The notes: generated by a model not told the origin, from the sequence alone. A stretch of DNA of 64,000 nucleotides from an uncultured bacterium (GCA_964448115.1 CAYUVA010000010.1:1-64000); one strand, 5' to 3'; shown: positions 7,439-64,000, counted from the first letter of the stretch. Numbers and translations: made by a program.

Positions 7439-8187
7439 TCGCCTCAAGGAGGACTCTCTTGCAGAGTCCAATAACTCAGGTCATCGCTATCTTTTGCCTG
7501 AGCAAGCTGCTCTTCTTACTGCCGGTACTTGATTTTGATGCTCATGGCTTGCTCAAGGACTTTCTGCGGCTGACCATGCTTTACCTGGCAGTTGTTTACT
7601 ATATTAGGGGAAACCAGCAGGAGAATACTTACACCAAGTTCAAGCCATTGGATATTTTGGGTCTTGGACCCATAAAGGGAAGTGGACTTGGGAAGTGCCT
7701 TATCATGGGAGTGATACCTCTTCTTCTATATACGGTCGTTTTCATCATGGAATCGAGCAAACCTGTCTTAGCACCGCAGCCTTTGTTTATCATTTCATCA
7801 TTATTATTAGGACAAGGGCTGCTTGAGGAAGCCGCGTTTCGAGGATACATCTTTGGGCATCTAAGGCGCAGATATAGTTTTATCCACGCTTCATTGGCTA
7901 CTAGTATCGTATTTGGCGGGATGCATATAATCCAGATGGATCGCTTTGGACTCGCCATGACCCTGTATTCAATGGTTGCAGGCTTTATCATCTCTGCCTT
8001 TCTCTGTTTGCTCGTGGAGTTGAATGGTGGACTAGTATGGGGAACGATAGTGGTTCATCTAGGATTGGATTCGCATCTTGTGTTTGATTTTTCTGTATTG
8101 GATCAGCCTCAAATGTCCCTGGTCGGTATTGCACCTTATTTAACTATTATTATAGGCATAATTCTTTTTCAGCCCTGGAGGGAATAA
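7435..8187 (+). CDS. CPBP (CAAX/Abi) family intramembrane metalloprotease
   Basis: EEAAFRGY, FGGMH and HLGLD motifs in a multi-TM protein; likely start ATG 7435 overlaps the upstream stop (ATGA). Confidence 0.88.
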   Translation: MIASRRTLLQSPITQVIAIFCLSKLLFLLPVLDFDAHGLLKDFLRLTMLYLAVVYYIRGNQQENTYTKFKPLDILGLGPIKGSGLGKCLIMGVIPLLLYTVVFIMESSKPVLAPQPLFIISSLLLGQGLLEEAAFRGYIFGHLRRRYSFIHASLATSIVFGGMHIIQMDRFGLAMTLYSMVAGFIISAFLCLLVELNGGLVWGTIVVHLGLDSHLVFDFSVLDQPQMSLVGIAPYLTIIIGIILFQPWRE

Positions 8188-8211
8188 TTAAAGAGCCATC
8201 CTCTTTATTTT

Positions 8212-8267
8212 CTTTGCGTCTTTGCGTGAGGTTCTTTTTCTTTTCTAAACTTTGCGCGCCTTTGCGT
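8212..8267. repeat. Short octamer repeat cluster (CTTTGCGT-type)
   Basis: CTTTGCGT at 8212, 8220 and 8260; CTTTGCGC at 8250. Confidence 0.6.
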
Positions 8268-8355
8268 GCATAGCAAATTATATTTGAATGTTGGGTCAGG
8301 TTAGCGCTATTATAAGTCGTATAAAGACAACCGAGATAGAAAACGAGGGCTGAAA

Positions 8356-9327
8356 TTGTTGGACGCTACACATAAACAGAAGGCGAAGGATCTCCTTGGT
8401 AGCCTGCCTGCGCTGGTTGAATTAGTGGTAAGAGACACGGTAGATGGACATCCACTGACATTGCAGCTCATGGAAGTGGCTGAGGAGCTATCCAGGCTAA
8501 TCGATAAAATTGCTGTTAAGAAAGAAGACAGTAGTGCGGAACTTCCCCATCTGGAGCTGCGCAGCGCCTCGTGCAGCGGTATCCTATATGCGGCTGTGCC
8601 GACCGGCTTCGAGTGGGATGTCTTCTGCAGGAGCATAAGATCGGCTGCCAGTGGCGATAGTAAAGATGTGTTTAAGAACCTACAATTGGGTGATCGAAGC
8701 TATGAGCTTGAGACTTACATCAGTGCGCAGTGTCCCCATTGTCCAAGGACGGTTTTAATTCTCAATCAACTCGCATTATCCTTTGATGGCGTAAAGCACT
8801 TGATAATCGATTCGTTAAGCTTTGCGACCAGGACTAATAAAGCCGGGGTATCCTCAGTACCGACCGTGTTTATAGGCGGTACAGCCAGATGGGTCGGCGG
8901 GATCAGTACAGAGGATCTTATCAAGCTGATCTCCACTGAAACCGATGATGAAGCCTGGGGAATGACCCTGGTATCGCAGTTGAATCATGGAGAGCTAGCC
9001 CAGGCACTGAGAACCCTTAAGGAGCACCATGGGGCAAACCGGCGATTGCTCGATCTACTGACCAAGCCAGATATGTCCAATCGAATGACCGCGCTCAGGC
9101 TCATCGAGGTCGCTGCTGAGGAGGCACCGGAGACACTGGAGGGGATCACCATGGAGCTATGTAAACTACTTGAGAACAAGGATGACAATATTCGAGGAGA
9201 TGCGGCTTATGCTCTGGGGTTGATAAAGGATCCCAAGAGCAAGGAATTTTTACAAAGAGCTCTCAATGATCCTAACCGAGATGTCCGCGAGACAGCCGAG
9301 GAGGCGCTGGAGGGAATGAATGTATGA
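8356..9327 (+). CDS. Thioredoxin-fold (AhpF-NTD/PDO-like) protein with C-terminal HEAT repeats
   Basis: CPHCP motif and cis-Pro loop VSSVPTVFIG; HEAT repeats IRGDAAYALGLI and VRETAEEALE; TTG start. Confidence 0.8.
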   Translation: MLDATHKQKAKDLLGSLPALVELVVRDTVDGHPLTLQLMEVAEELSRLIDKIAVKKEDSSAELPHLELRSASCSGILYAAVPTGFEWDVFCRSIRSAASGDSKDVFKNLQLGDRSYELETYISAQCPHCPRTVLILNQLALSFDGVKHLIIDSLSFATRTNKAGVSSVPTVFIGGTARWVGGISTEDLIKLISTETDDEAWGMTLVSQLNHGELAQALRTLKEHHGANRRLLDLLTKPDMSNRMTALRLIEVAAEEAPETLEGITMELCKLLENKDDNIRGDAAYALGLIKDPKSKEFLQRALNDPNRDVRETAEEALEGMNV

Positions 9328-9793
9328 TAACCTCGATTAGCCATAATTTTTGGAAAGTAGCAATCTTGATTTGACATGAGTCTTTATGCATGGTATGTAG
9401 TAAAGATGGAAAATAGGAAAAGGGGTGTTTTCATAGACAATGGGGAGGATCCATCGAATCTCTCTCTACTCAAGCCTCAGAGATATTAGACCCCTCAAAC
9501 TAAGTCTCTTTGACAACCCCTTCAAGCACATAGGGTCCTCCCCCTCTTCAAATATTATATCTTGGTTTTACTCTGCTCCTTTTGACTTTGGAATGTCAGT
9601 GAGAAGACGATGGCTACGAGACGCCGAAAGGACGGGCAAGGAAAAAAGATGGCAATCCCGGTAGGAAAATCAATAGCCTGCTTTTGTTTTTCATCTTACC
9701 TGCCTCATTATTGTATGTAACATCACCAAAACTAATCTCCCTTTTAATGAGAATCAATACCTAATTTCGAGCCTTATTTAAAAAAGTAATCCG

Positions 9794-12082
9794 TCAAGGA
9801 CTGTATGGCTTTAGCTGAGCGCCGTTGTAGAAGTAATAGCTGCGCCCTGGATACTTTGCCGCCACCCTCCGGTTCAACTCGGCGCCACGATCCTGCACAT
9901 AGACTACATCCGTGTCCAGATCCGGGCTGTTTAGGTGAAACACGGACCCGTAAACCGACCAGAACATGCCCTCCTTGATGAAGACCACAGCATTCTTTAT
10001 GCCCTGAGCCTTGACTTGCTCAATGATTGCTGGATTGGTGAAGTTGTAGCCCTTGTACTCGGTGCGCGCCTTGTAGGGAAGATAATCAGCCAGGTTGAAA
10101 GCTATGATGAAATAAACCATCGGCGCAAATGCGACAATGAACGATAGACTTCTCCCTCGCTCAGCATCGCCGCTGAAAAGCCGATTCTTCACCCTCAAGG
10201 CGACATCAGCCAGTCTCTGCGCGCCTATGATGCTAAGTAGAGTAAAGGCAGGCATAGCCTCGTACCAGAAGCGCGGTCCATAGCAGATCCCGTGATACCA
10301 CCAGAAATAATAACCCAAGACAAGGCAGATATAGCTCGCCAGGTGATACCAGTCCCACCTGTTCCTGGTGAACAATACAAACGGAATCAAGAGGTAGCTT
10401 AGGGTCAAGTATGGCTTCCAGCCAAAGAGGTGATGCAGAAGCACCATGAAGTTAAGCTCCACATTGCGCATCCCCTGGCGCACCGAGTGGCTGCCGAACC
10501 ACCCGACATCCCCGAAGCCGAGCCTGTCAACATCGGAGTAAACATGATAACCGAACTTGAGGGGACTGCCCGTGCAGACCGTATTGAAGGTCAACAAAAA
10601 CAATATCGGCGGAATGGCTCCGAGTACAATTAAAAAATAAGGCTTCAACCTTGCTCTATTCCCTTTTAATAGGTCGATTAGTGCATAGAATGCAGCCGGG
10701 GTAGCCATTGCTAGGGCAGTCCACGGTCTTATTATCGCTGCCATGCCGATGGCAAGACCGGCTAGAATGCCGTTCACATTCTTGCCATCCTGGTAAGTTC
10801 GCACAAACAAGTAGATGAATAAAGCCACGAACAGCAGGCACGAGGTATGCGCCATATAGGATCCGCTCATGAACAGGAAAAATGGCGAGCTGGTGGTCAA
10901 TAATCCAGCCAGAAATCCCACCTTGAACGAGTACATCCTGATGCCGATAAGAAAGATGAGTACCACGCTCAGAGCGCCAAACAGCGCTCCCATGGACCAA
11001 GGCTTGCCCAGCCAGACGCCAGGAACCATCACAAGTGAGTGCCCCGGCAGGTACTTGGTGTACCACTTGCCGTTCTTGTTCACTATCATCTCGAAGTCGA
11101 AGGACGCCTTTGGCTCAGGAGAAGGCTGATAGAACCTTCCCTTGGCAAAGACCTTGGCTTGGAACAGGGTCGATATGCTGTCCTGGACATGAGGTATCCG
11201 GTCTAAAACCGCTGATGCGATGTGCAGGTTGATTATGAAGGATGAGATAAAAAGCAAAATAGCCATAGAGGAGACAAGTATCTTGCGCAGTCTTGGCTGC
11301 TTAGCTTTTTCAAGCGCTTTCTCGTAGAGATGAACCGGCTTAACCAGAAGCGGATAGAGATGGTGATACATAAGATACAATGCCAGATAGGCTGCTACAA
11401 CACAAACAATGATAACCAGCGCAAGCCAGTAGGTTGGAATGAGCCGCACCACTATCATGCGCACATTGTACAAAAACGGCGTGCTCCACAGGTTGCTTGA
11501 AAGAGGCGCTCCCTCTTGACCGTTCTCGATGTAGTTCCAGAAGACATCCTCGTGCTTGGGACGGACATGGAACAGGATCCCTCGCTTGGCATCCTTAGCC
11601 CTTACCAGCACGCCTGCATCGAGGCCACGCGACAGCCTCGCCTCTACGACATAATCATCCCAATGGTCATAACCGCCGACGATGAACGCCTTTCCATCGA
11701 CCATGCGCCCACAGAGCAGCGGGTATATCTCGTTGATTGCATTGCGCTTCCACGGCACAGGGTAATGGTCATCCAGTTTGCTTTTCTCCAAGCCGAAGCC
11801 ATCGGAGAAGAGAATCTCGCCGGTATAAAAGTCCTTGACCACGATCCAGTCCCACGCCTGGGGGAAGATCTCGCCATGCACATGTAAGCCGACCTTGCCC
11901 TTCTCGAAGCCTTGTCGGTTGATGGTCAGCGTTGAAAGGAGCTTGCCGTTGACATAGCCCTTTGCCATGTTGCCCACTACCTCGACCTTGACCATGGTTG
12001 GAACCTTGAATGCCCAGTAGAAGGCGATAAGGATGAGAATATTGATGATTACGAAAATGACCAGGTAATCTATTTTTTTCAT
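9794..12082 (-). CDS. GT-C (ArnT/PMT-like, GT39-type) membrane glycosyltransferase with an N-terminal beta-sandwich domain
   Basis: PHVQDS acidic loop, KYLPG, ~12 TM segments, SYMAH, IRP, YGPRFWYE. Confidence 0.78.
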   Translation of the reverse strand: MKKIDYLVIFVIINILILIAFYWAFKVPTMVKVEVVGNMAKGYVNGKLLSTLTINRQGFEKGKVGLHVHGEIFPQAWDWIVVKDFYTGEILFSDGFGLEKSKLDDHYPVPWKRNAINEIYPLLCGRMVDGKAFIVGGYDHWDDYVVEARLSRGLDAGVLVRAKDAKRGILFHVRPKHEDVFWNYIENGQEGAPLSSNLWSTPFLYNVRMIVVRLIPTYWLALVIIVCVVAAYLALYLMYHHLYPLLVKPVHLYEKALEKAKQPRLRKILVSSMAILLFISSFIINLHIASAVLDRIPHVQDSISTLFQAKVFAKGRFYQPSPEPKASFDFEMIVNKNGKWYTKYLPGHSLVMVPGVWLGKPWSMGALFGALSVVLIFLIGIRMYSFKVGFLAGLLTTSSPFFLFMSGSYMAHTSCLLFVALFIYLFVRTYQDGKNVNGILAGLAIGMAAIIRPWTALAMATPAAFYALIDLLKGNRARLKPYFLIVLGAIPPILFLLTFNTVCTGSPLKFGYHVYSDVDRLGFGDVGWFGSHSVRQGMRNVELNFMVLLHHLFGWKPYLTLSYLLIPFVLFTRNRWDWYHLASYICLVLGYYFWWYHGICYGPRFWYEAMPAFTLLSIIGAQRLADVALRVKNRLFSGDAERGRSLSFIVAFAPMVYFIIAFNLADYLPYKARTEYKGYNFTNPAIIEQVKAQGIKNAVVFIKEGMFWSVYGSVFHLNSPDLDTDVVYVQDRGAELNRRVAAKYPGRSYYFYNGAQLKPYSP

Positions 12083-54044: not shown

Positions 54045-54446
54045 TCAGCTTATCTCGATCTCTTTGGAGCTTTCCCAAAGCCCATGTATGTTGCAATAGG
54101 CGAGCGCATGAAGTGTTCCAGGCTGGGAGATCTTCATAAATGCAACCGCTGAGTGGCTGGCATATACTGGTCCTTGATTAGCACCCTGGCTCGATTCTCC
54201 GTGGGCGTTGAATTCCACTTTGGCAACATCGTAAGTGAATTTTGCCTCCTTGGGATGAAAGAAAAGGTGTATGTACCGAATGTGGTGCTCGGTTGTGTTT
54301 GGATGGGCGATCTCCTTGCCGAGGCTGATCTTTACCTCGAAGGTTTCGCCTGCCTTGACCTTATCTGGACATTCGATGACTGGCACATGCTTTTCAGCCT
54401 TCCAGTCTCCATGTTGAATACGATCCTTAAAGTCGGTCATTTCCAT
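54045..54446 (-). CDS. Superoxide reductase, neelaredoxin-type (class II SORL)
   Basis: EKHVP, HPNTTEHHI and CNIHGLW iron ligands; SD AAGGAGG. Confidence 0.92.
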   Translation of the reverse strand: MEMTDFKDRIQHGDWKAEKHVPVIECPDKVKAGETFEVKISLGKEIAHPNTTEHHIRYIHLFFHPKEAKFTYDVAKVEFNAHGESSQGANQGPVYASHSAVAFMKISQPGTLHALAYCNIHGLWESSKEIEIS

Positions 54447-54614
54447 TATTCCTCCTTGCTCAATATTTTGTAGCGTTGACCATTGGTTTCTTTAATCCAT
54501 TTTTTTCACAACCCCTATGAATTGAGTTTTATTCCTTTTATCATATTCTTGTCTAAATCTACTCTATGTTTTAAATTCAGTTCAACTTATTTAATACAGG
54601 AAAAAGAAAGAAGC

Positions 54615-55688
54615 ATGGATGAGAAATCTGGCAAGGACAAAATATGCCGATTGACCGGATATTCCAGGGCGGCTGGGTGAGCCTCGAAGGCAAGTCTCTC
54701 TGAGCTGGCGCAGGTTCTGTGTCATATAAAGCCGCGTAAGAATCCGGATGTACTAATCGGCTCCGATTCAGCCGATGATGCCGGTGTCTATCGATTGGCG
54801 CCGGATCTGGCGGTGGTTTATACTGTCGATTTTTTCACGCCAATAGTCGATGATCCCGAAATTTTCGGCATGATAGCTGCTGCCAACTCGCTGAGCGATA
54901 TATATGCAATGGGCGCTGAGCCGATCGCTGCCCTTAACATCGCCTGCTTGCCGACCAAGAAACAGGGGATGCTGGATCTATTCAATCGCATCGTGGCTGG
55001 GGGAGTCTCCAAGCTCGATGAAGCCGGCTGTACGCTTATCGGTGGTCATACTTTAGAGGATGATGACCTGAAGTTCGGATATACGATCATCGGCAGGGTG
55101 CATCCTGATCGCCTGGTAACTAATGCGGATGCAAAGCCGGGAGATCTTTTGATTCTTTCCAAGAAGTTAGGCACTGGTGCTTTAGGCAGCGCCCTTAAGT
55201 CCGGAAAACTAAGCTCAAAGGACCAGACTGAATTCATCGACTCCATGCTTCAGCTTAACAAGGCTGCCTGCCAGGTGATGCAGGGATTCAAGGTAAAGGC
55301 TGCCACCGATGTTACCGGTTACGGGCTTGCTGGACACGCTTTTGAGATGGCAAGGGCTAGCGATGTTAAGATAATCCTTTATCCGATGCAGATACCTTAT
55401 TTCAAGGCTGCTTTCGACTTGCTAAGTCAAGGTAAGTTCATTACCCGGTCCACCAGGCAGACCGCACAGTACCTCAAGGATTTCATCGATGACGCCAGCA
55501 ACATCAAGCAGCCCTATCAAAGCCTTCTTTTCGACCCTCAGACTAGCGGAGGATTGCTTATCTGCATCCAGGAGAAGAGCGCAAAATCATTTATACAGGC
55601 TCTGTACGATAATAGGGTTAGGGCAGCAACTATCGTCGGCAGGGTAATCGAAAGGAAAAAATCAGAAAAATTCATCGGCTTCGAGTAA
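54615..55688 (+). CDS. selD: Selenide, water dikinase containing selenocysteine (UGA at 54678-54680, Sec22)
   Basis: RLTGYSRAAG-TGA-ASK reads in frame into DDAGVY, TVDFFTPIVDDP, NSLSDIYAMG, GGH, ATDVTGYGL, DPQTSGGLL. Confidence 0.95.
54702..54717 (+). promoter_or_regulatory. Candidate bacterial SECIS hairpin
   Basis: GAGCUG-GCG-CAGGUUC stem-loop with a G-led loop 27 nt downstream of the in-frame UGA. Confidence 0.45.
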
Positions 55689-55713: not shown

Positions 55714-56625
55714 TCAGTTGTCTATCTTCCTGGCTACTAGCCCGAAGTAATCCTCCAGCTTAACCTCTTCGATGATCTCCATGCCATGATTTATCAGCGC
55801 CCGGCAGATCTGCGAAGCCTTTTCCTTGACTATTCCAGAACAGATTAATACGCCGTTTTCCTTCAGACAATCGATAATCTTTTCTGCACAGTCGATCAAT
55901 ATCTGCACATATAGATTTGCACAGACAATATCAAAGAACCCGGTTTCCTCGAGATCCCTCACATCGCAGCACTCCAATACAGGATTTAATAAGATGCCGT
56001 TCAGCTCCAGGTTCATATATGTATTTTCTATTGCCTCCGAATCGATATCTATCATCTTCACCTTCGAGGCACCTAGCTTCAAAGCTGCAATCCCCAAGAT
56101 GCCGCTGCCACAGCCGATATCGAGCACCCAATCAGCCGGCGAGATAAATTCCTCCAAAAGCTCAAGACAGCAACGAGTCGTCTCGTGGAAGCCGGTGCCG
56201 AAGGCGGTGGCTGGATAGATGATGATAGGTATGCGAGATAAGGGATCTGGGGGTAGCTTTTTACCGGGGATGATGATCAATGTCTTTCCAACGGGCATAG
56301 GAGTAAGGGTTCTTTGCCAGGCAGCGAGATAATCCTCGGCTTTGATCTGATCTATCTCCACCCGTTCCAGCGCAGATCCGCATCTGCGTGCTGCATTATC
56401 AAGCTGATTTATGATCTTATCAGGCTCAGCTTGTTTATTGCCTAGAAGATAAAAGGTCAGCAATAGCCTGTCTTCAGCAATAAAGAGCCTACCGCCCAGC
56501 TCGGTATCCTTATCCTGGAGCTGGAATGAGGTGATGCCGAGTTCTATCAACTCGGCGGTTATAATATCAAAAGCGCCAGGGTCGATCAGAATTCGTATCC
56601 TAGTATGTTTCCTCGAACGGCTCAT
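55714..56625 (-). CDS. prmA: Ribosomal protein L11 methyltransferase
   Basis: P.TAFGTGFHETTRCCL, VLDIGCGSGIL, DID, ANL, SGI; start uncertain and overlaps the upstream gene. Confidence 0.93.
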   Translation of the reverse strand: MSRSRKHTRIRILIDPGAFDIITAELIELGITSFQLQDKDTELGGRLFIAEDRLLLTFYLLGNKQAEPDKIINQLDNAARRCGSALERVEIDQIKAEDYLAAWQRTLTPMPVGKTLIIIPGKKLPPDPLSRIPIIIYPATAFGTGFHETTRCCLELLEEFISPADWVLDIGCGSGILGIAALKLGASKVKMIDIDSEAIENTYMNLELNGILLNPVLECCDVRDLEETGFFDIVCANLYVQILIDCAEKIIDCLKENGVLICSGIVKEKASQICRALINHGMEIIEEVKLEDYFGLVARKIDN

Positions 56626-58267
56626 AAAGCAAAGCAAGAACGGTTTTTACTCCAACGATGCCGTCCGGGATCAATCCTTTTTGTTTTTGTGCCCGTATCA
56701 CCGCTTCCTTGAGCTGCTCATCAAAGATGCCGTCGCAACACTGACCAGGCTCAAGGAAGCCTTGTTTGACCAGCATTTTTCGCAGCGCCACCACCTGTTC
56801 TCCCCGTGCGCCGATGCCAAGCAACTGCCTGATTTTCAGATCCGAACTCTCCAGGTAATATGACTCGCCACTGTAGCGCCGTTTAAGATCATCCGCACCA
56901 AGTTCGATGATCCCGCTTGATGGATTGCATACTACATGCGCTGCATCCCTTTTTCCACGCAGGATAAAATACTCGCTGGTGATCCCCCTATCATCGTACA
57001 AGGAGATGATAATAGGATATCCGATGGTCTCCAGGTCTCGCCTGGTGAACTTGCCGGCAACCAGGTTGAAATTCGCATCCAGCTCGATCTCCATGAGCGA
57101 TTCCAGCTCCAGATCAAAGAGGTACTCGGTAGGATCAACATCGCGGTTTTTTCTGCGTTCATAAAGGTACAATATCCAGCCGAGCAGCCTTCCGGTTGCC
57201 TGACTGCTATCACCGGTCTTGAAATGCTCGTACTCATCCCGGTAGGTCTCCAGGTAAACCGTTGGTGTTGGAGTTAGGGTCGGAATGGCTGTTGGACTGG
57301 GAGTAGGCGTGCTGGTCGGCTGATACCAGGGATTGCCCGGCTCTTTACCGCTTACAGCACTCAGGACGATATAACCTATCGAGAAAACTATCAGAGCGAA
57401 GAATAATCCGATTACTATGTATCTGCCCATGTTCAATGCCTCCAAGTCTTGGGAGGGACTTTTACCCTCCATGGTCATTATAGCCTCTTTTACGATCTTT
57501 TTACAAATATGAGTGGTTCCCATCACATAAGCGCCGAGCAACGCCTTGTCGCAGACCTGGTTTATCAGCCGTGGCACTCCCTTTGAGTAGTTTTGGATCG
57601 CCCGGTAAGCACCCTTGTCGAATGCAGGATAATGACGGGGAGCAGCGACCTTTATGCGATGGTTAATGTAGCGGCGAGCCGATGCGAGATCCAGCCTACC
57701 GAGATGATCCCTGATCGCTATCCTTTGTCTTAGTTGCTCAAGTTCGGGGTGAGCGATGATCCTGTTTAGCTGCGGTTGACCGACCAATACCAGTTGCAGC
57801 AGCTTCTCTTGATCGGTCTCCAGGTTGGACAGCATCCTAAGCTCCTCGAATAACTCAAAGGGGAGATTCTGAGCCTCATCAATGATGAGCACAGCGAGCT
57901 TGCCCTCGCTAGCGCATTGGAGAAGAAAGGTGTTCATCCTGAGCAATAGATCCTGCTTGCTGGCATGCTTGGGAGTTTGTACCCCAAAGTCGGCAAGGAT
58001 GCTTTTTAAAAGCCCCTTCTCATCGAGGTATGGATTGAAGATGATCGCAATCTCCGCCTTGTCATGTAGCTTTTGAGCAAGCGTCCTTATGAGCGTGGTC
58101 TTGCCAGTCCCGATCTCCCCGGTGAGCAGCATGAAGCCCTCTTTGCGTTGGATGCCGTAAAGAAGGTGATTGAATGCTCGCAGGTGCCCGGGACTAAGGT
58201 AGTAGAACCTCGGATCCGGCGTTATGGCAAAGGGACGAGCCTTGAAGCCGAAAAAATTCTCATACAT
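56600..58267 (-). CDS. ExeA/GspA-family AAA ATPase with TM segment and C-terminal peptidoglycan-binding domain
   Basis: MY..FFG....PF..TPDP, TGEIGTGKTT, IIDEAQNL, LVGQP, GVPRLIN; PG-binding ...DGIVG..T. Confidence 0.9.
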   Translation of the reverse strand: MYENFFGFKARPFAITPDPRFYYLSPGHLRAFNHLLYGIQRKEGFMLLTGEIGTGKTTLIRTLAQKLHDKAEIAIIFNPYLDEKGLLKSILADFGVQTPKHASKQDLLLRMNTFLLQCASEGKLAVLIIDEAQNLPFELFEELRMLSNLETDQEKLLQLVLVGQPQLNRIIAHPELEQLRQRIAIRDHLGRLDLASARRYINHRIKVAAPRHYPAFDKGAYRAIQNYSKGVPRLINQVCDKALLGAYVMGTTHICKKIVKEAIMTMEGKSPSQDLEALNMGRYIVIGLFFALIVFSIGYIVLSAVSGKEPGNPWYQPTSTPTPSPTAIPTLTPTPTVYLETYRDEYEHFKTGDSSQATGRLLGWILYLYERRKNRDVDPTEYLFDLELESLMEIELDANFNLVAGKFTRRDLETIGYPIIISLYDDRGITSEYFILRGKRDAAHVVCNPSSGIIELGADDLKRRYSGESYYLESSDLKIRQLLGIGARGEQVVALRKMLVKQGFLEPGQCCDGIFDEQLKEAVIRAQKQKGLIPDGIVGVKTVLALLYEPFEETY

Positions 58268-58334: not shown

Positions 58335-58946
58335 TCATATCAGGTGTAGCCAGTCGCCCAAGAGGAACTGCATCCTGCCGATGAGAAGCGAGATGCGAGC
58401 CATGACCGTATAACCAAAGGAAGCGCCGAACGAGATCATCAAAAAATAAATCCCAATCTTAGCCAAAACCCCGAATGCTCCCCTGTGCGCCTTGGAGAAG
58501 AAGAAATAAAATAAGCCAGTCAATACGCCGATTACCAAGACCAGGTGATTAAGAAAGCTCACTTCGGGACCGGTAACGATGGTGCCCTTTAGCTGCATTA
58601 ACACATTCGACTGGATATAAACGACAAAGTAGATCCCTGAGCCGGTGCCGATCATGAATGCCAGCGGCCAGCGACTCATCCAGCCCAACTTGGCAGAGAG
58701 CCTAAAGAGCATCATAATCCCCAGAAAAAATGGGATCAATAAAAGGAAATTGTGTGCAAAGTCCTCGGTTAAGGGGACAAAGAGCTTCCTGATGAAGATC
58801 TCATGCCAGTACCTGCCGAACCAGTAGCCAGCGGATACGCCGACGAAAAGATGCTCGCCTATCTTGTAAAAAGGATTGTCTTTATACAGAAAACTGAATA
58901 TGGATAATGTAAGTATCGCAGCCAACCATATGCCAAACGTTTCCAT
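58335..58946 (-). CDS. Uncharacterised polytopic membrane protein (GlmL-like operon)
   Basis: ~6 TMs; SFLYKDNP, EHLFVG.SAGY, FGASFG..VMARISLLIGR. Confidence 0.8.
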   Translation of the reverse strand: METFGIWLAAILTLSIFSFLYKDNPFYKIGEHLFVGVSAGYWFGRYWHEIFIRKLFVPLTEDFAHNFLLLIPFFLGIMMLFRLSAKLGWMSRWPLAFMIGTGSGIYFVVYIQSNVLMQLKGTIVTGPEVSFLNHLVLVIGVLTGLFYFFFSKAHRGAFGVLAKIGIYFLMISFGASFGYTVMARISLLIGRMQFLLGDWLHLI

Positions 58947-58960
58947 GCCCCATTTAACTC

Positions 58961-59836
58961 CTATTTCTTCTTTCGTCTCTCAAGGAAAAAGGCGATGTTG
59001 CCGATAACTATGAATATAATAATAACCAGGTGTGCAATCGATTGCGCATCCATCCCCTTGGTCGCTGTTCCGAAGAATGTTTGCAGGTTGGGATACATAT
59101 CCGAGTAGTTCTCCCTTAGCAGCGTCTCGTACTCGGCAGCCCCTTTCAATCCACCGAGCAGACCCTCAAGCTGCCCGGTCTTGTAGTATGGGTAAAGCTG
59201 GGGTGCGCTGACTGCGGTACAGCCCCCTATAATCGGGCGGCCGAACTGATCGCCGGCGATCTGTACCCACTCCGGGATGCCGGGGGAACCAGCCGAGAGA
59301 TCGACTACAAGATCGAAGTTTCGTAAGTTCTTGATCCCCTTGAAGGCAGGTATCTCTGACAGGGGTGTCTGATGGGTGTCAGCCTGGAAGGCTTCAACGA
59401 TGTCCTTCCCGATACGTTGAATTACCACCTGGTTTCCAGCCATGAATCCGAGGGCTACATAATCGGTGCCATAACGCAAACCTGGGAAATAACTCTTCGA
59501 TTCCAGCATCGCCTCCTCAGCCAGGGAAGCTCCCGCCGGCCATAGCGCCATGCTTACAATCCGGTGCTCCTTTGCCAGGCAGTGCAGAAAAACTGCCAGG
59601 TTCATCGGATAGATCTCCGGGCGAGTTGAGGGATCATAGTCATGGGCAATAAGTATCAATGAGCCTTTGGGTAGTTTGTCTATGTAATTGAAGGCATCCT
59701 TAACTGCCGGGGATACCTTGATTGCGAAACCTATTGGGTAAATCAGCGGAAGGGCAACTGCTAGACCGATAGCCAAAAATACCCACCTGCGATCCAGGCT
59801 GCTGATGAACTCAAGAAGCGTCCTCTTCTCCGCCAT
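58961..59836 (-). CDS. Uncharacterised TM-domain-TM protein (GlmL-like operon)
   Basis: N- and C-terminal TMs flank an alpha/beta domain (DYDPS, PYY..GQL.GLLGGLKGAAEYE, MDAQS.AH). Confidence 0.8.
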   Translation of the reverse strand: MAEKRTLLEFISSLDRRWVFLAIGLAVALPLIYPIGFAIKVSPAVKDAFNYIDKLPKGSLILIAHDYDPSTRPEIYPMNLAVFLHCLAKEHRIVSMALWPAGASLAEEAMLESKSYFPGLRYGTDYVALGFMAGNQVVIQRIGKDIVEAFQADTHQTPLSEIPAFKGIKNLRNFDLVVDLSAGSPGIPEWVQIAGDQFGRPIIGGCTAVSAPQLYPYYKTGQLEGLLGGLKGAAEYETLLRENYSDMYPNLQTFFGTATKGMDAQSIAHLVIIIFIVIGNIAFFLERRKKK

Positions 59837-59838
59837 GC

Positions 59839-60459
59839 CTACTCACCCCCCAGGTAGGATCTCTCGATACCCAGGATTATGCGAAGCGCGGTCGATGCCA
59901 ATCCGAGAGCAATACCGATCATGATAGCACGCTGTCCGGCTGTGTTTGGATAATCCATGATCCAATTGGTTATATCAGGCATCTTGCTCCATATATATTC
60001 TCCAAGCGGAACCCTGCCGAGCATGACGAAAAATGCTGCCGCCAGAAGCAATGAAGCCTCCACAGTGCGGGCACGGAAGGCGCGAAACGCCGCCGAGGCG
60101 ACAAAGAACGCCAGAATGGAGAACATGGTGGCTGCCAGCGGCGTATAAAGGTTCTCGTAGCCAAAGAAAAAGGGCGTTCCCTCATCGATACCCCAAATCA
60201 AGGCAGAGATAGCCATAAAGGCAAATCCAAGAATGGTGAAGAAATTGTAGAACCAGTTGGGCGACTTCCTCGATATCCTAATTATGCACACCCGAAGAAG
60301 GCTCATGATCCCCAAGAACATGGCGAACATGGCTATTATCGAAAACCAGTCCTGGAAGGTGTCCTGCAAAGTGCCAAAGGGGCGGTGGGGTATGAACTGA
60401 GCTACTATCATAGTGATCCCAGCCAGACCAGCTAAGAATATAGGGATCTGATATTTCAA
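59839..60459 (-). CDS. Uncharacterised polytopic membrane protein (GlmL-like operon)
   Basis: TTG start behind SD AGGAGG; ~6 TMs; ATMFSILAFFVASAAFRAFR, AGQRAIMIG, LRIILGIER. Confidence 0.8.
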   Translation of the reverse strand: MKYQIPIFLAGLAGITMIVAQFIPHRPFGTLQDTFQDWFSIIAMFAMFLGIMSLLRVCIIRISRKSPNWFYNFFTILGFAFMAISALIWGIDEGTPFFFGYENLYTPLAATMFSILAFFVASAAFRAFRARTVEASLLLAAAFFVMLGRVPLGEYIWSKMPDITNWIMDYPNTAGQRAIMIGIALGLASTALRIILGIERSYLGGE

Positions 60460-60474
60460 GGTTTACCTCCTGGC

Positions 60475-61851
60475 TTAATTCCCCTGGAATAACGATACAT
60501 AAAGATCAACAATGCTTTTCAGGCTATCGATAAAGCCCTGGTAAGCGCTGAATCCCTCCAGGGAGAGATGGCTTTGGAAGAAACCGCTTACCGACTGCAT
60601 GGACAAGAACTCATGGAATAATCCGGGTATAGAGCCGATGATTATGGCAGCCATGATCAAGAACTTAGCCCAATCCTGCCCCTTGAGGCTTCCCAGCAGG
60701 CGCGGCTCCTTGGATAGATATGCGCTGGCAGCGAAAAGCTCCTCGCCGATTAGCGTATAGTCGCAGGCAGCTACGAAAAAGGGGAGTTGCGAGGCTTCCG
60801 CGGTGCCTGCGATCTGAATAGCCCCCACAGAGTTGCCGGTCTCTGCCAGGATGAGCGACTCGGCATAGAATCTGCCCAGAAAGAAATTGGCCGCCGGCTT
60901 GTCGCGAACCATTATACCATCGACCCCGGCTGCGTAGCCGAACTGATCATCGGTCAGGTAGCGAACCTGGTTCTCATCGTAGGCGTCCGGTCTCCCCACA
61001 TCGAGGTAAGCCTCCTTGACCACCTCCTGGGCTGCGGTCATCACCACGGATCGAGCGCAGGGGACCATAATATTGGTCTCATACTCCGCTGCCTTCCTGG
61101 CAACATGTGAGAGGATGGTGATGCTGGCGATGGTCTGCACATCGTCCAGGTCCATGATGCCGGGCACATAAAGAACCGACTTACCCATCTCGGTAGCCCG
61201 TCCGATCGCCTCATCGACAGCTTGCAACCCGGCTATGGGGCGAATATAAAGCTCCTTGCCTTTTTTTGCCTGGCTTATGTTGTACAGGATGAAAAATGAG
61301 AAAAGTATGGCGGTGATAAAAAGCGCGATCCTACCCTTGTGAAACCACTGTCCCTTGCTTATGGCCCCGGAGAAGTCCTGCGAAAGCGACTCCTGGTCGT
61401 TGAAGAGAGCCTTGATCTTGTAATAATACTTTTCATGGTTCTCGACATTGGAATCTACCGCCGACCTGGCGCCACCGGAGGCGGTGATTACGGTCTCAAA
61501 GGGACCGTCTATCGATTTAGAGCGCAGGATCTCGAAACGCTCCGGTACGAATATTTCTCCCTCAGCAGGGTGATATTCCCAGGTAATGGTGATCGAGTTT
61601 CCGGCATCATTAGGTGAGTCTTTTGCGGTTACCCTTGTTGGGGTAGCAAGCTTGAGCTTCGGTGGTACATGCTCTGTAGCTTCGGTTATAAGCGATACCT
61701 GTATATCCCAAGCAGTCCCATCCAAAGGCTTTGCAGCCTGCGGAATTGCTTCCGGCTGAGTATTCTCGCCCGCTGCTTCCAAGACTTGTGCCCACACTAG
61801 CGCTGCCACCAGGATGATCAAGCATAATTGTTTATTAAATGACATGGACAA
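60475..61851 (-). CDS. Fibronectin-III plus DUF6754-like membrane protein (GlmL-like operon)
   Basis: Signal peptide; FN3 (D.PNDAG.SI.ITW..YYYKIKA); TM; IRPIAGL.A.DEAIGRATEMG...LIGEELFAASAYL domain. The DUF number is from memory. Confidence 0.78.
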   Translation of the reverse strand: MSMSFNKQLCLIILVAALVWAQVLEAAGENTQPEAIPQAAKPLDGTAWDIQVSLITEATEHVPPKLKLATPTRVTAKDSPNDAGNSITITWEYHPAEGEIFVPERFEILRSKSIDGPFETVITASGGARSAVDSNVENHEKYYYKIKALFNDQESLSQDFSGAISKGQWFHKGRIALFITAILFSFFILYNISQAKKGKELYIRPIAGLQAVDEAIGRATEMGKSVLYVPGIMDLDDVQTIASITILSHVARKAAEYETNIMVPCARSVVMTAAQEVVKEAYLDVGRPDAYDENQVRYLTDDQFGYAAGVDGIMVRDKPAANFFLGRFYAESLILAETGNSVGAIQIAGTAEASQLPFFVAACDYTLIGEELFAASAYLSKEPRLLGSLKGQDWAKFLIMAAIIIGSIPGLFHEFLSMQSVSGFFQSHLSLEGFSAYQGFIDSLKSIVDLYVSLFQGN

Positions 61852-61856
61852 TATCC

Positions 61857-62984
61857 CTACATAGTTTCGATCAGCTCCACATTGGCGCGGGGTAGGAGGT
61901 GTTCGGTGCCATCTTCCAGCCTGAGCTTCACCACCCGAGCCTTGGACTCCGATTCTAGCACGGTCAGCTCCGGGGGCAGCTCTATGACCTCGCCGACATA
62001 TCCGAAGTAGGGCTGGCGGATGATGCGAACCATGCTCCCCACCTGCATCCCTGCTGATTCGGTCTCCACGGACTCCGGGAAATCGCCATCTTGTTCGGCA
62101 GGGATGACTATGACCGGTCTAATCACCCCGGCTCGTATCTGGGTGGCTCCGTTGATGCTGGCTAGTTGTCCTTGCTTCTTGGATAGAAGCTCGAAGGTCG
62201 CCTTTGCCATGTCTATCCTTCCAAAGCCCTCGGTCAAAATGAGGGTGATGCCCTTATCCTCCCTACCGGTGATGGCTACTCCCAGGTCGTAACCGAGGAA
62301 ATCGCGCAGTGTCTTGTCATCCAAGCCGCCGACAACAACGCCCACGGCTCCGACCTCTATAGCCTTTGTTATCGCCTGGTAGTCGATGAAGGAGCCGCCA
62401 ACGATAACCTTTCCCTTACAGTCTGCCGTGATCATGCTGGCGGTAAGCTCCTGGGTTCTATCTTCGGTGAGCACCATTACCTCTCCGCACGCCTCTCCGC
62501 CGATGCCGAAGATGCCCTGGATGAAGGAGCAGGGGGACTCGATAACAACACCTTCTTTGGGCAAGATCTCCTTCACCGTGCCATCGATGAAGGCATCTAT
62601 CTGCACCGGGATAGGAGGCTCACGAAAGAGCACCTGCCCGGTAACGCTGGAGATGTTCTCTATGGTGCCGTCGCAGGGAGCATGAGCATAAGACTTGAAC
62701 AATCCGAATATTCCCTTTGTTTCAGCGACCACATCCCCCTTCTTAGCCGACTCGCCTACTTGCTTTGTCATGTAGGAGGAAATATCGCCGGGGAGGATCT
62801 TGAGCTGATTGGCTACATTGAGCGGATAGACGGCACCGGGCAGATCGGTTCGAGCTACTATGGTATCATGTTTAACCCGTTGTCCTTGTTTGACCAGCAC
62901 CTCTCCCTGCAAGGGGAGTCGCCTCTCCTTGCGTAGGATCATCCTCTCCTTGACCATCAGTCCTGGTGTATATGCAACTGCCAT
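61857..62984 (-). CDS. Uncharacterised soluble protein with barrel-sandwich hybrid motifs and a C-terminal KOW-like motif
   Basis: VLVKQGQRV....VA; K.VGE..KKGD.VA...APCDGTI; QGIFGIGGE; VGSMVRII..PYFG..GEV. Confidence 0.8.
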   Translation of the reverse strand: MAVAYTPGLMVKERMILRKERRLPLQGEVLVKQGQRVKHDTIVARTDLPGAVYPLNVANQLKILPGDISSYMTKQVGESAKKGDVVAETKGIFGLFKSYAHAPCDGTIENISSVTGQVLFREPPIPVQIDAFIDGTVKEILPKEGVVIESPCSFIQGIFGIGGEACGEVMVLTEDRTQELTASMITADCKGKVIVGGSFIDYQAITKAIEVGAVGVVVGGLDDKTLRDFLGYDLGVAITGREDKGITLILTEGFGRIDMAKATFELLSKKQGQLASINGATQIRAGVIRPVIVIPAEQDGDFPESVETESAGMQVGSMVRIIRQPYFGYVGEVIELPPELTVLESESKARVVKLRLEDGTEHLLPRANVELIETM

Positions 62985-63001
62985 GTATAGCTCCTTCGTG
63001 T

Positions 63002-64000
63002 TTACTTTAGGTATTGTTCCAGGTCAGGGTATGCCTTCAGCGCCTTGAACCATTCCCTGAGGTGTTTGACCCTCATCGTCGCCTCCTTGGAGATATCGAA
63101 CGGTCGCCCCCTGGCATCGAAGATTATGCCGACCACACCGCCCTCCACCAGAGCCTTGTGCGTCTTTCCCTTGCCGCTACCGCAGTCGAAACCTTTGCTA
63201 GGCTCAATGTTCACCTCTGCGTACTCGCCGACCGGCAACTCAATGAGCCTCATTTCGCCGAATTTCATGCTAAAGGTCTCGGTAGCGCCTGCTTTGGGTG
63301 TGAAGTGCACCTTCATCACATCCTTTCCCGGCTTGGTGGTGCCGGTCGGGCTGATGCAGGTGCCGAGCCTTATCAGGCAGTCCTTCTCGAACACCTCGGC
63401 AGCAGCGCGGGGATGTACTGTGGAGAGCACACCGAGCTGGGGCATCATGAAGATGCTATCCACTGCCAGGCGGGTGATACCCTCAGGCTGGAAGGCATCG
63501 ATCAGCATCATGGCAGCCTGGTTGCGTCTCGGCGCATGAGACAGCGCGCCGCCGCTGCCAACCAACAGATCCAGCGCCATCATGTCAACCAGGGTCTCAC
63601 CGGAGCCGGTCTGGTCAAAGGCATCAGAGATGGTTCTTTGCTTCTGCACCCCGCGCAATGACACGGCAAAGCTCTTGTGCTGCACAAAGGCAAGGCGAAG
63701 CGCCTCCTTGGCAATAGCCTGCTCCACGACCAGCTCCTCCATGAGCTGCGGGATGGTTGTGGGGCGGATCATCTTGTTTTTAACTCTATTTCTAAGATCC
63801 CGCTCATCCATGTCAAAGGGCACCCAGCGCATCACATTATCCAAGCCAGCCTCGGCGAATACATTGGAGATGCTGTAGCTCATGCCCAAGTTGGCGCTGA
63901 CCGTTCGGTTGAAGGTTCCCTGAAATACCGAGAAGATGTCGGTGGTGGCTCCGCCGATATCGACCCCGACCACCTGTATGTTCTCCATCTTGGCTATGGT
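63002..64000 (-). CDS. Glutamate mutase L (GlmL/MutL)-like ASKHA ATPase, 5'-truncated at the window edge
   Basis: VDIGGATTDIFS (phosphate-2), RTVSANLGMSYS, LVGSGGALSHAP; reading frame open to position 64000. Confidence 0.8.
   Translation of the reverse strand, partial: TIAKMENIQVVGVDIGGATTDIFSVFQGTFNRTVSANLGMSYSISNVFAEAGLDNVMRWVPFDMDERDLRNRVKNKMIRPTTIPQLMEELVVEQAIAKEALRLAFVQHKSFAVSLRGVQKQRTISDAFDQTGSGETLVDMMALDLLVGSGGALSHAPRRNQAAMMLIDAFQPEGITRLAVDSIFMMPQLGVLSTVHPRAAAEVFEKDCLIRLGTCISPTGTTKPGKDVMKVHFTPKAGATETFSMKFGEMRLIELPVGEYAEVNIEPSKGFDCGSGKGKTHKALVEGGVVGIIFDARGRPFDISKEATMRVKHLREWFKALKAYPDLEQYLK

Follow-up and report, generated by a model that had tools for sequence, protein, structure and literature searches.

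The DNA analysed here is a stretch of 64,000 nucleotides from an uncultured bacterium (the window; positions 1-64000 of contig CAYUVA010000010.1, G000:C10:1-64000). Its last part, positions 58335-64000, carries on the minus strand an operon encoding a protein of the GlmL/MutL family with ATPase motifs, a soluble protein and four membrane proteins, which an earlier note on the window had described as a six-gene operon. The contig extends past the window, and there two further small, co-oriented genes, named b and a, precede the gene of the putative ATPase, so that the operon has eight genes (Table 1). The putative ATPase is called L, its soluble partner S, and the four genes for the membrane proteins are called the cassette.

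The eight genes constitute a conserved system of two parts. One part comprises L, S, b and a, is cytoplasmic or membrane-tethered, and is present in one copy, rarely two. The other part is the four-gene membrane cassette, which is present in 1-10 diverged copies. Besides the number of genes, the first description had missed that the cassette is separable and multi-copy, and that one ATPase module is present per several cassettes.

The spacers between the six open reading frames (ORFs) of the window were recomputed from the coordinates, and the values of 17, 5, 15, 2 and 14 nt were obtained again. Purine runs resembling Shine-Dalgarno sequences (AAGGAG, GAAGGAG, CCAGGAGG and TAGGAG) are present 5' of at least four starts, in agreement with the earlier description. 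Upstream of gene a the coding strand switches, and a divergent GT4 glycosyltransferase gene, a gene resembling subunit C of type II secretion systems (T2SS-C-like) and others follow. The arrangement of the operon is beyond chance because it is conserved in other genomes.

Table 1. Coordinates of the eight genes and of L-S fusion genes in other genomes (TM, transmembrane helix; aa, amino acids).
Feature	Position	Strand	Remarks
Gene a, 161 aa	65167-65652, contig G000:C10	co-oriented with operon	upstream of L; one long hydrophobic hairpin
Gene b, 129 aa	64812-65201, contig G000:C10	co-oriented with operon	upstream of L
L, long-form GlmL/MutL-family (PF13941) predicted ATPase, whole gene	63002-64819, contig G000:C10	minus	605 aa
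L, part within the window	63002..64000, past window edge	minus	C-terminal 332 aa
S, soluble partner, 375 aa	61857..62984	minus	barrel-sandwich hybrid ~49-123, swivelling beta/beta/alpha ~151-295, KOW/SH3-like ~311-374
Cassette subunit 1, DUF6754 (PF20539), 458 aa	60475..61851	minus	signal or N-terminal helix, FN3 ~70-164, TM 171-195, alpha/beta ~196-392, TM ~394-417
Cassette subunit 2, 206 aa	59839..60459	minus	~6 TM, R-x-F-R after TM4, without Pfam family
Cassette subunit 3, 291 aa	58961..59836	minus	TM-domain-TM, domain ~215 aa, without Pfam family
Cassette subunit 4, 203 aa	58335..58946	minus	polytopic, ~5-6 TM, without Pfam family
L-S fusion	L135:8083-10959		single ORF
L-S fusion	L136:5555-8698		single ORF
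L-S fusion	L137:8451-11312		single ORF
L-S fusion	L138:8878-11925		single ORF
L-S fusion	L139:8049-10988		single ORF

Gene order and linkage in other genomes

The cassette order 1-2-3-4 was found in 20 of 20 loci around DUF6754 matches in 11 other genomes, and often two or three sets were arranged in tandem. In the L-centred sample, which consisted of 80 loci from named metagenome-assembled genomes (MAGs) and single-amplified genomes of many phyla with L homologues of 63-75% identity, at least 1.2 kb of downstream sequence is available in 74 loci, and in 66 of these L is followed by S. Of the 80 loci, 43 contain a DUF6754 gene (26 of the 40 with full flanks), 56 contain gene b and 22 contain gene a. 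Clustering of the ORFs of 100 loci revealed eight recurrent families, i.e., L (78 loci), S (66), the four cassette genes (46-53), b (48) and a (23). Every other family was found in at most 17 loci; the 17-locus family is CdsA-like, and a 16-locus cluster overlaps the cassette genes on the opposite strand and is presumed to be a shadow ORF.

Proximity of the two parts is not general. Five genomes with no cassette near L/S still carry 4-10 DUF6754 genes elsewhere. The source genome itself has a second cassette (C13:51355-54996). Its locus (G000:C13:51355-56344, L109:7355-12344) encodes proteins of 483, 239, 280 and 208 aa with no L or S adjoining, and the cassette lies 270 nt after a gene for a 358-aa acetate/butyrate-kinase-like protein of the actin/Hsp70/sugar-kinase superfamily (ASKHA). 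In genome G190, which is a single contig, L (C1:97727), S (C1:443066) and the cassettes (around 1.97, 3.58 and 3.68 Mb) are all unlinked, and all are retained.

Phylogenetic profile and copy number

The phylogenetic profile was based on 201 genomes that are kin to the source at the level of the same domain only. They are not independent, due to kinship, and the results are therefore given as plain counts with no test statistic. DUF6754 is present in 52 of the 201 genomes, i.e., the system occurs in about a quarter of the sample. S was found in 51 of these 52 genomes (the exception is G069) and in none of the 149 others. The long form of L was found in 50 of the 52, once cut by a contig end and once in a divergent version (193 bits), and in only one of the 149 genomes without DUF6754 (G100, 85% complete). 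The co-occurrence of the gene set in other genomes, for which the earlier note had asked, is thus very tight. Short-form MutL proteins (frames of 447-503 aa) were detected in 11 genomes, 10 of which are without DUF6754. As a single case, G016, a family-mate of G190, has S and three cassettes and no detectable L.

In the 201-genome sample the number of DUF6754 copies ranges from 1 to 7 per genome, and up to 10 copies were found in a 1.7-Mb Bacillota genome. L and S are single, except in these small Bacillota genomes and in genomes with a fusion paralogue, in which there are two. The paralogous cassettes were compared in seven genomes, only some of which have enough copies of each subunit. Within a genome, pairs of DUF6754 domains are on average 45-63% identical, and pairs of the remaining three subunits 35-40%, 34-45% and 36-49%. 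The DUF6754 domain is thus the most constrained part, as would be expected if every paralogue has to fit a single partner. In a quick FastTree tree of 43 DUF6754 domains, rooted at the midpoint and read without regard to supports, paralogues of the same genome are scattered among clades shared with other phyla. Judged from these sequences, the paralogous cassettes within a genome are old.

The DUF6754 family is already a Pfam entry and comprises at least 8000 clusters when grouped at 90% identity, and 2278 representative clusters when grouped at 50%. It occurs in many phyla, most of them largely uncultured, namely Zixibacteria, Marinimicrobia/Neomarinimicrobiota, Ignavibacteria, Latescibacterota, Cloacimonadota, Fermentibacteria, Gemmatimonadetes, Planctomycetota and some Bacillota.

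L is a long-form member of the GlmL/MutL family

The full L protein matches Pfam MutL PF13941 over the whole profile (positions 1-450 of 450, 3e-129, 432 bits), and the fragment within the window also matches it (1.1e-42). With the NCBIfam GlmL/MutL models NF040745, NF040744 and TIGR01319 the 332-aa window fragment reached 60.3 bits (cut-off 475, GlmL), 47.1 bits (600) and 36 bits (204), respectively, which are scores of the fragment and not of the full protein. Weak Pfam matches to Hydantoinase_A (27 bits, E 3.3e-6) and Hydant_A_N were also obtained. No solved structure related to L was found by sequence-profile search of the PDB.

An alignment of 34 long forms and 4 short forms, the latter linked to mutases, was used for the analysis of motifs. 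DCGSTTTK, VDIGGATTD and GSGG are invariant or nearly so, and the motifs DxGxTxxK, SSAGGGL, DxGGATTD and GSGG are common to long and short forms. The phosphate-1, phosphate-2 and adenosine motifs of L are shared with the four mutase-linked members. Based on these motifs, L is predicted to be an ATPase of the ASKHA type that would hydrolyze ATP. The C-terminal extension, which had been recognized together with the motifs DIGGATTD and GSGG in the first description, is about 120 aa long. All 34 long forms have it, and all four short forms lack it. L also carries an internal insert in comparison with the mutase-linked short forms, which have 449-490 aa and are 26-32% identical to L.

The neighbourhoods of the two forms differ as well. 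The four short-form loci were read as a control: one gene lies between GlmS and GlmE, two lie after OraS/OraE, and one lies between luciferase-like monooxygenases. Near L, no recurrent mutase family was present among the 100 clustered loci. In the source genome, no B12 mutase was found in the operon or in about 10 kb upstream on the contig, so that the absence of a visible mutase, which had been noted for the window, holds also for the upstream sequence. GlmE (PF06368) was not found in the source genome, which is 94% complete and has only one PF13941 gene. By sequence and neighbourhood, the long and the short forms are two subfamilies with different neighbours. The name 'GlmL/MutL' in these genomes should not be taken to indicate glutamate or ornithine fermentation.

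The source genome contains 47 matches to the B12-binding domain PF02310, none of them at the operon locus. Most of these matches are in frames of about 450-530 aa (e.g., C29:51268, C8:54796 and C34:37585), and together they look like a very large complement of B12-dependent radical-SAM-type enzymes for a genome of 4 Mb.

S has three predicted domains and is fused to L in some genomes

A structure model of S was built from an alignment of 37 sequences (pLDDT 86). The first domain is modelled as a barrel-sandwich hybrid that resembles the N-termini of RnfC (Z 7.8) and NqrA (Z 7.7), with 64-65 residues aligned. The second domain has a swivelling beta/beta/alpha fold like the phosphohistidine domain of enzyme I of the phosphotransferase system (PTS; Z 9.4, root-mean-square deviation (rmsd) 2.6, 106 residues aligned), and further likenesses are to rifampin phosphotransferase (Z 9.2) and RraA (Z 8.6). 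The third domain is KOW/SH3-like (Z about 8), with likeness to NdhS, PsaE and PetP (Z about 7). All these Z values are only slightly above the level rated as common, and they are thus taken to describe folds and not functions.

Among the invariant or near-invariant columns of the 37 sequences there is no histidine, and phosphohistidine chemistry in S is therefore unlikely. Cofactor-binding motifs or conserved cysteines or histidines were also not seen in this alignment. With Pfam RnfC_N, S scores 19.1 bits, below the cut-off of 25.6, and a Bacillota paralogue scores 33.5 bits. Searches of S, the DUF6754 protein and the three other membrane subunits against PDB sequence profiles yielded nothing beyond FN3, weak KOW and TIM-like stretches, and for S the ESM Atlas contained only hypothetical clusters of the S kind.

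Frames of 953-1047 aa that match the profiles of both L and S were found, by frame length, in six genomes. Five fused genes were fetched, and each is a single ORF that encodes L (profile about 6-576) followed by two hybrid barrels and the swivel domain, without KOW (Table 1). The fusion-bearing genomes also retain separate L and S genes, and in one of them (G128, locus L136) a full cassette begins 162 nt after the fusion gene. Based on these natural fusions, it is concluded from sequence that L and S act together.

The four subunits of the membrane cassette

The 458-aa protein matches DUF6754 (PF20539) at residues 166-413 (8.8e-126, 418.7 bits, above the gathering score). In its structure model (pLDDT 78.5), an N-terminal helix and an FN3 domain are followed by a TM helix, by a Rossmann-like alpha/beta domain of about 200 aa and by another TM helix. 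The FN3 domain, already recognized in the earlier note, is supported by PDB profile matches to titin Fn3 and others and by the model (Z 13.1, rmsd 2.3, 95 residues aligned). The alpha/beta domain is placed in the cytoplasm because clusters of lysine and arginine flank it on both sides. This domain is very conserved, in contrast to the outer part of the subunit, which is highly variable.

Several searches were performed with the DUF6754 protein. The Foldseek top match of the model is the phosphatidic-acid-binding LNS2 domain (E 5.5e-7), with an rmsd of 26; the rows for LNS2, SIS and ligase domains have rmsd values of 15-26 and are taken as hints only. In a wider structure search with the whole model the matches were taken up by FN3. 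The cytoplasmic domain had no usable match among named ESM Atlas clusters, and in a profile search of 1.84 billion representatives the 150 best matches contained only strong family members and no remote relative. Assignment as a HAD-like DxD domain was rejected, as the aspartates after strand 1 are outside the conserved columns.

Family members found in this search range in length from 282 to 1272 aa, and the conserved domain is always C-terminal. Fifty long members chosen from the 150 best matches were scanned: 16 have BamB-like PQQ beta-propellers, 3 have fn3 domains and 31 have no Pfam match. The Bacillota forms have only about 260-280 aa and are without any outer head. At the other extreme, a planctomycete MAG encodes a DUF6754 protein of 1434 aa (L058:13052-17356), in whose N-terminal extension the outward domain of the 291-aa protein recurs as several copies or fragments; this fits a location of both at the same face of the membrane.

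For the other three subunits, the hydropathy of the 206-, 203- and 291-aa proteins agrees with the earlier prediction of two polytopic proteins and one TM-domain-TM protein. The R-x-F-R motif of the 206-aa protein is invariant. The large domain of the 291-aa protein is predicted to face outward by the positive-inside rule, because basic residues are present at both termini. This protein has more than 4000 homologues, all named 'hypothetical'. For none of the three was a Pfam family found when 36-37 members each were scanned at E values up to 1, which gave scattered sub-threshold matches only, and none had a profile match in the PDB. The 206- and 203-aa subunits have no detectable relation to each other (hhalign probability 0.7%). 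The small proteins a and b are membrane-associated, and hydropathy indicates that a is a two-helix membrane hairpin.

Complex prediction of the DUF6754 cytoplasmic domain (196-392) with S, with the L extension (478-604) and with b (38-128) gave 0.00 in each case; these were two runs without controls, and the result counts neither way.

Neighbouring genes of the cassettes

In three small Bacillota genomes, two of which are related (G041 and G042), the cassettes abut genes for Amidohydro_3/1, DUF885, gamma-glutamyltranspeptidase or M20 proteins in 6 of the 13 loci with readable flanks. In G042, four of the about nine Amidohydro_3 genes directly touch one of the 10 cassettes. The L/S genes in these genomes adjoin S58, C26 and M42 peptidase genes. 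A signal-like hydrophobic stretch was absent from all 15 N-termini of neighbour enzymes that were inspected. The presence of cytoplasmic hydrolases beside a membrane module suggests uptake of the hydrolase substrates.

Outside of Bacillota the neighbours are mixed and include DnaK, a V-type ATPase operon, NiFe hydrogenase, ABC (ATP-binding cassette) sugar/peptide binding proteins, proline dehydrogenase and peptidase M1. The V-type ATPase example is L023 (G004:C18), in which the cassette (7616-11117) is inserted into the operon, with subunit c and subunit C/AC39 upstream and subunit F downstream. In one lineage envelope and lipid genes lie upstream, which encode CdsA-like proteins (17 loci), a TPR lipoprotein similar to BamD/YfiO, a DPBB protein similar to RlpA and a lipid kinase. 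The mixed neighbours together with the beta-propeller and FN3 heads keep a model of work at the cell envelope alive.

A proposed shared energizing module for several membrane modules

The earlier note had proposed that a GlmL-like ATPase was recruited to a membrane complex. The functional link between the two is well supported by the results described above, while physical docking and the kind of work performed are inferred. A single conserved ATPase module, numerous diverged membrane modules and a conservation that peaks on the possible contact face together correspond to the logic of importers with a shared ATPase. We thus tentatively prefer, with a probability of roughly 0.45, the reading that several substrate-specific membrane modules draw their power from the same L/S ATPase module, by analogy with shared-ATPase ABC and ECF (energy-coupling factor) importers.

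In detail, L/S would be the ATP-driven energizing module for several cassettes, and in each of them its docking site would be the highly conserved alpha/beta domain by which the DUF6754 subunit reaches into the cytoplasm. The polytopic subunits of 206 and 203 aa might form the pathway through the membrane, and the cargo might be bound by the 291-aa subunit with its outward domain and by the DUF6754 subunit with its variable FN3 or beta-propeller head. Each cassette would then be an uptake module for particular substrates, and the system would represent a new class of ATP-driven transporters distinct from the ABC type; in Bacillota the cargo may be peptide-like or other amide compounds. A broader claim is more doubtful, namely that this would be a new class of primary active transporters, in which an actin/Hsp70-fold ATPase with a swivel partner drives interchangeable four-subunit modules; in its boldest form, a ratchet of the Hsp70 type would pull peptide-like or polymeric cargo.

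Several observations weigh against uptake driven by a shared module. ATP hydrolysis by L is read from motifs, and its contact with the cassette, i.e., docking on DUF6754, as well as transport, its direction and its cargo are inferred. By profile search, L was not detected in two DUF6754 genomes (G016 and G069) and S was not detected in one (G069), and in G190 the components are scattered over the chromosome. The membrane subunits resemble no known transporter in Pfam or by PDB profile, and outer heads such as FN3 and the BamB-like beta-propeller are typical of contacts with proteins or polymers and not of small-solute binding. The Bacillota loci of the two related genomes are not independent, which leaves roughly four distinct contexts, and outside of Bacillota the cassettes adjoin heterogeneous housekeeping genes with no recurrent catabolic partner. 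The Bacillota genomes also have 10-25 matches to ordinary ABC importer permeases, and the system is thus no simple replacement of ABC importers.

Four other explanations were weighed. It is unlikely that the cassette transmits ATP hydrolysis by L/S to work outside of the membrane, as MacB, LolCDE or FtsEX do, by which envelope polymers, lipids or surface proteins would be exported, inserted or remodelled. The outer parts would suit such a machine, as 16 of the 50 long forms have BamB-like beta-propellers and three have FN3, and the 291-aa subunit has an outward domain, which is repeated in the extension of the 1434-aa protein. The LNS2 match (E 5.5e-7, but rmsd 26), the CdsA-like, BamD/YfiO-like, RlpA-like and lipid kinase genes of one locus group, and the position of the window operon amid ExeA-like, T2SS-C-like and glycosyltransferase genes point in the same direction. 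However, the envelope neighbours are lineage-specific and not general, the headless Bacillota forms are the most multiplied and flank cytoplasmic hydrolases, and up to ten diverged paralogues per genome fit specificity for many cargoes better than one envelope task. The latter multiplicity, and the variable heads, would also be unexpected for an ion pump or a redox-coupled bioenergetic complex, which we regard as very unlikely. The similarity of S to RnfC and NqrA (19 bits with RnfC_N here and 33.5 in the Bacillota paralogue), the resemblance of its C-terminal domain to NdhS, PsaE and PetP, and the cassettes found inside a V-type ATPase operon and after NiFe-hydrogenase genes would be compatible with it, but the Z values are in the common range, S lacks cofactor motifs and conserved cysteines or histidines, and no other RNF/NQR families are present in the operon.

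L/S could also be a shared cytoplasmic enzyme or trap, ATP-dependent and hydantoinase- or kinase-like, that acts on imported compounds, with the cassettes as ion-driven carriers or channels. This would account for the weak hydantoinase matches of L, for the phosphohistidine-swivel fold in the middle of S, which is that of PTS enzyme I and rifampin phosphotransferase, and for the amide hydrolase genes beside cassettes and the acetate/butyrate-kinase-like gene before the second cassette. It is nevertheless quite unlikely, as the 37 S sequences have no invariant histidine, a single enzyme would need to serve up to ten diverged carriers, L/S is accompanied by the membrane-associated small proteins a and b, and the strong constraint on the DUF6754 cytoplasmic domain among paralogues suggests a common protein partner. 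That L simply reactivates a B12-dependent mutase, as an ordinary chaperone whose membrane neighbours are coincidental, is extremely improbable, in spite of the full-length PF13941 match and the 47 B12-binding-domain matches in the genome. Neither the operon nor its flanks contain a mutase, a mutase operon upstream, which the earlier note had named as a point to be checked, is absent, and no GlmE was found in the 94%-complete genome. The mutase-linked forms are a distinct, short subfamily, three of the four control genes lie beside GlmS/GlmE or OraS/OraE, and 10 of 11 genomes with short forms have no DUF6754, in contrast to the long L with its presence in 50 of 52 DUF6754 genomes versus 1 of 149 others.

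Comparison with known systems

Powering of several membrane modules by one L/S module would have parallels in group-II ECF transporters and in ABC sugar importers with MsiK/MsmK, in which one ATPase module is shared by several membrane or specificity modules. In both cases there is one energizing module per genome and there are several scattered, diverged membrane modules beside catabolic genes, and the most conserved part is the one expected to meet the shared module. In contrast to the ABC and ECF systems, none of the eight proteins belongs to the Pfam families of ABC ATPases (ABC_tran), known permeases, EcfT or S-components, the predicted ATPase is of the actin/Hsp70/sugar-kinase kind, and the membrane module has four subunits.

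L is homologous to the accessory proteins of glutamate mutase and ornithine aminomutase (PF13941, NF040745, NF040744) across all 450 profile positions. It differs from them in having 605 aa with the extension versus about 450-490 aa without further domains, in never being beside a mutase in the loci examined, in its constant association with S, and in a distribution that follows DUF6754. The reactivases of diol and glycerol dehydratase, DdrAB and GdrAB, and EutA are Hsp70-like ATPases with a swivelling domain. We set L/S beside them as a likeness, as a predicted ASKHA-type ATPase is combined with a swivelling beta/beta/alpha domain (the middle of S), in some genomes fused to L. The difference is that the partner of L/S would be a membrane module and not a B12 enzyme. 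A further analogy is given by mitochondrial Hsp70 at TIM23 and BiP at Sec61/Sec63, where an actin-fold ATPase at a membrane channel drives the passage of a polymer; these motors, in contrast, are eukaryotic, depend on J-domains and act on polypeptides. With NqrA and RnfC, S shares only the N-terminal barrel-sandwich hybrid (Z 7.7-7.8), whereas nothing else of NqrA/RnfC and none of the other NQR/RNF subunits was found in the operon. The swivel of PTS enzyme I is similar in fold, but its phospho-accepting histidine is not conserved in S.

To our knowledge, no known membrane machine uses an ATPase of the GlmL/MutL family. Literature searches by the topics DUF6754, PF13941, GlmL and ASKHA transporter, which did not cover subscription-only papers, yielded nothing on the eight-gene system, in accordance with the earlier statement that similar gene sets are only annotated as hypothetical and have no known functional study. 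We rate the system as outside the known kinds, and three of the four membrane subunits and S are without a family or a solved relative. If L/S indeed powers the cassettes, a major family of membrane machines has gone unnoticed so far, one more type of ATPase would join the short list of those that energize membrane transport, and the reconstruction of nutrient uptake, or of envelope work, in the carrier phyla would have to be revised.

Further genes in the window

Downstream of the operon, at a distance of 67 nt, the window encodes a 555-aa ExeA-like protein with AAA_22 and a C-terminal PG_binding_1 domain (56600-58267, minus strand). It reaches 305 bits with the model of the PEP-CTERM-system ATPase (TIGR03015), just below the cut-off of 324.5. 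A homologue adjoins the system in only one of 80 other loci, and the protein is therefore probably no part of it.

At lower window coordinates lies selD, encoding selenide, water dikinase (54615-55688, plus strand). Its single frame is broken by one TGA (54678-54680) within AAG-U-ASK, and with translation table 11 it is divided into two ORFs (54483-54680 and 54795-55688). Judged from this context, the product is very likely a selenocysteine-containing SelD. A 133-aa ORF on the minus strand (54045-54446) appears, by eye from its translation, to encode a protein of the superoxide-reductase/neelaredoxin type.

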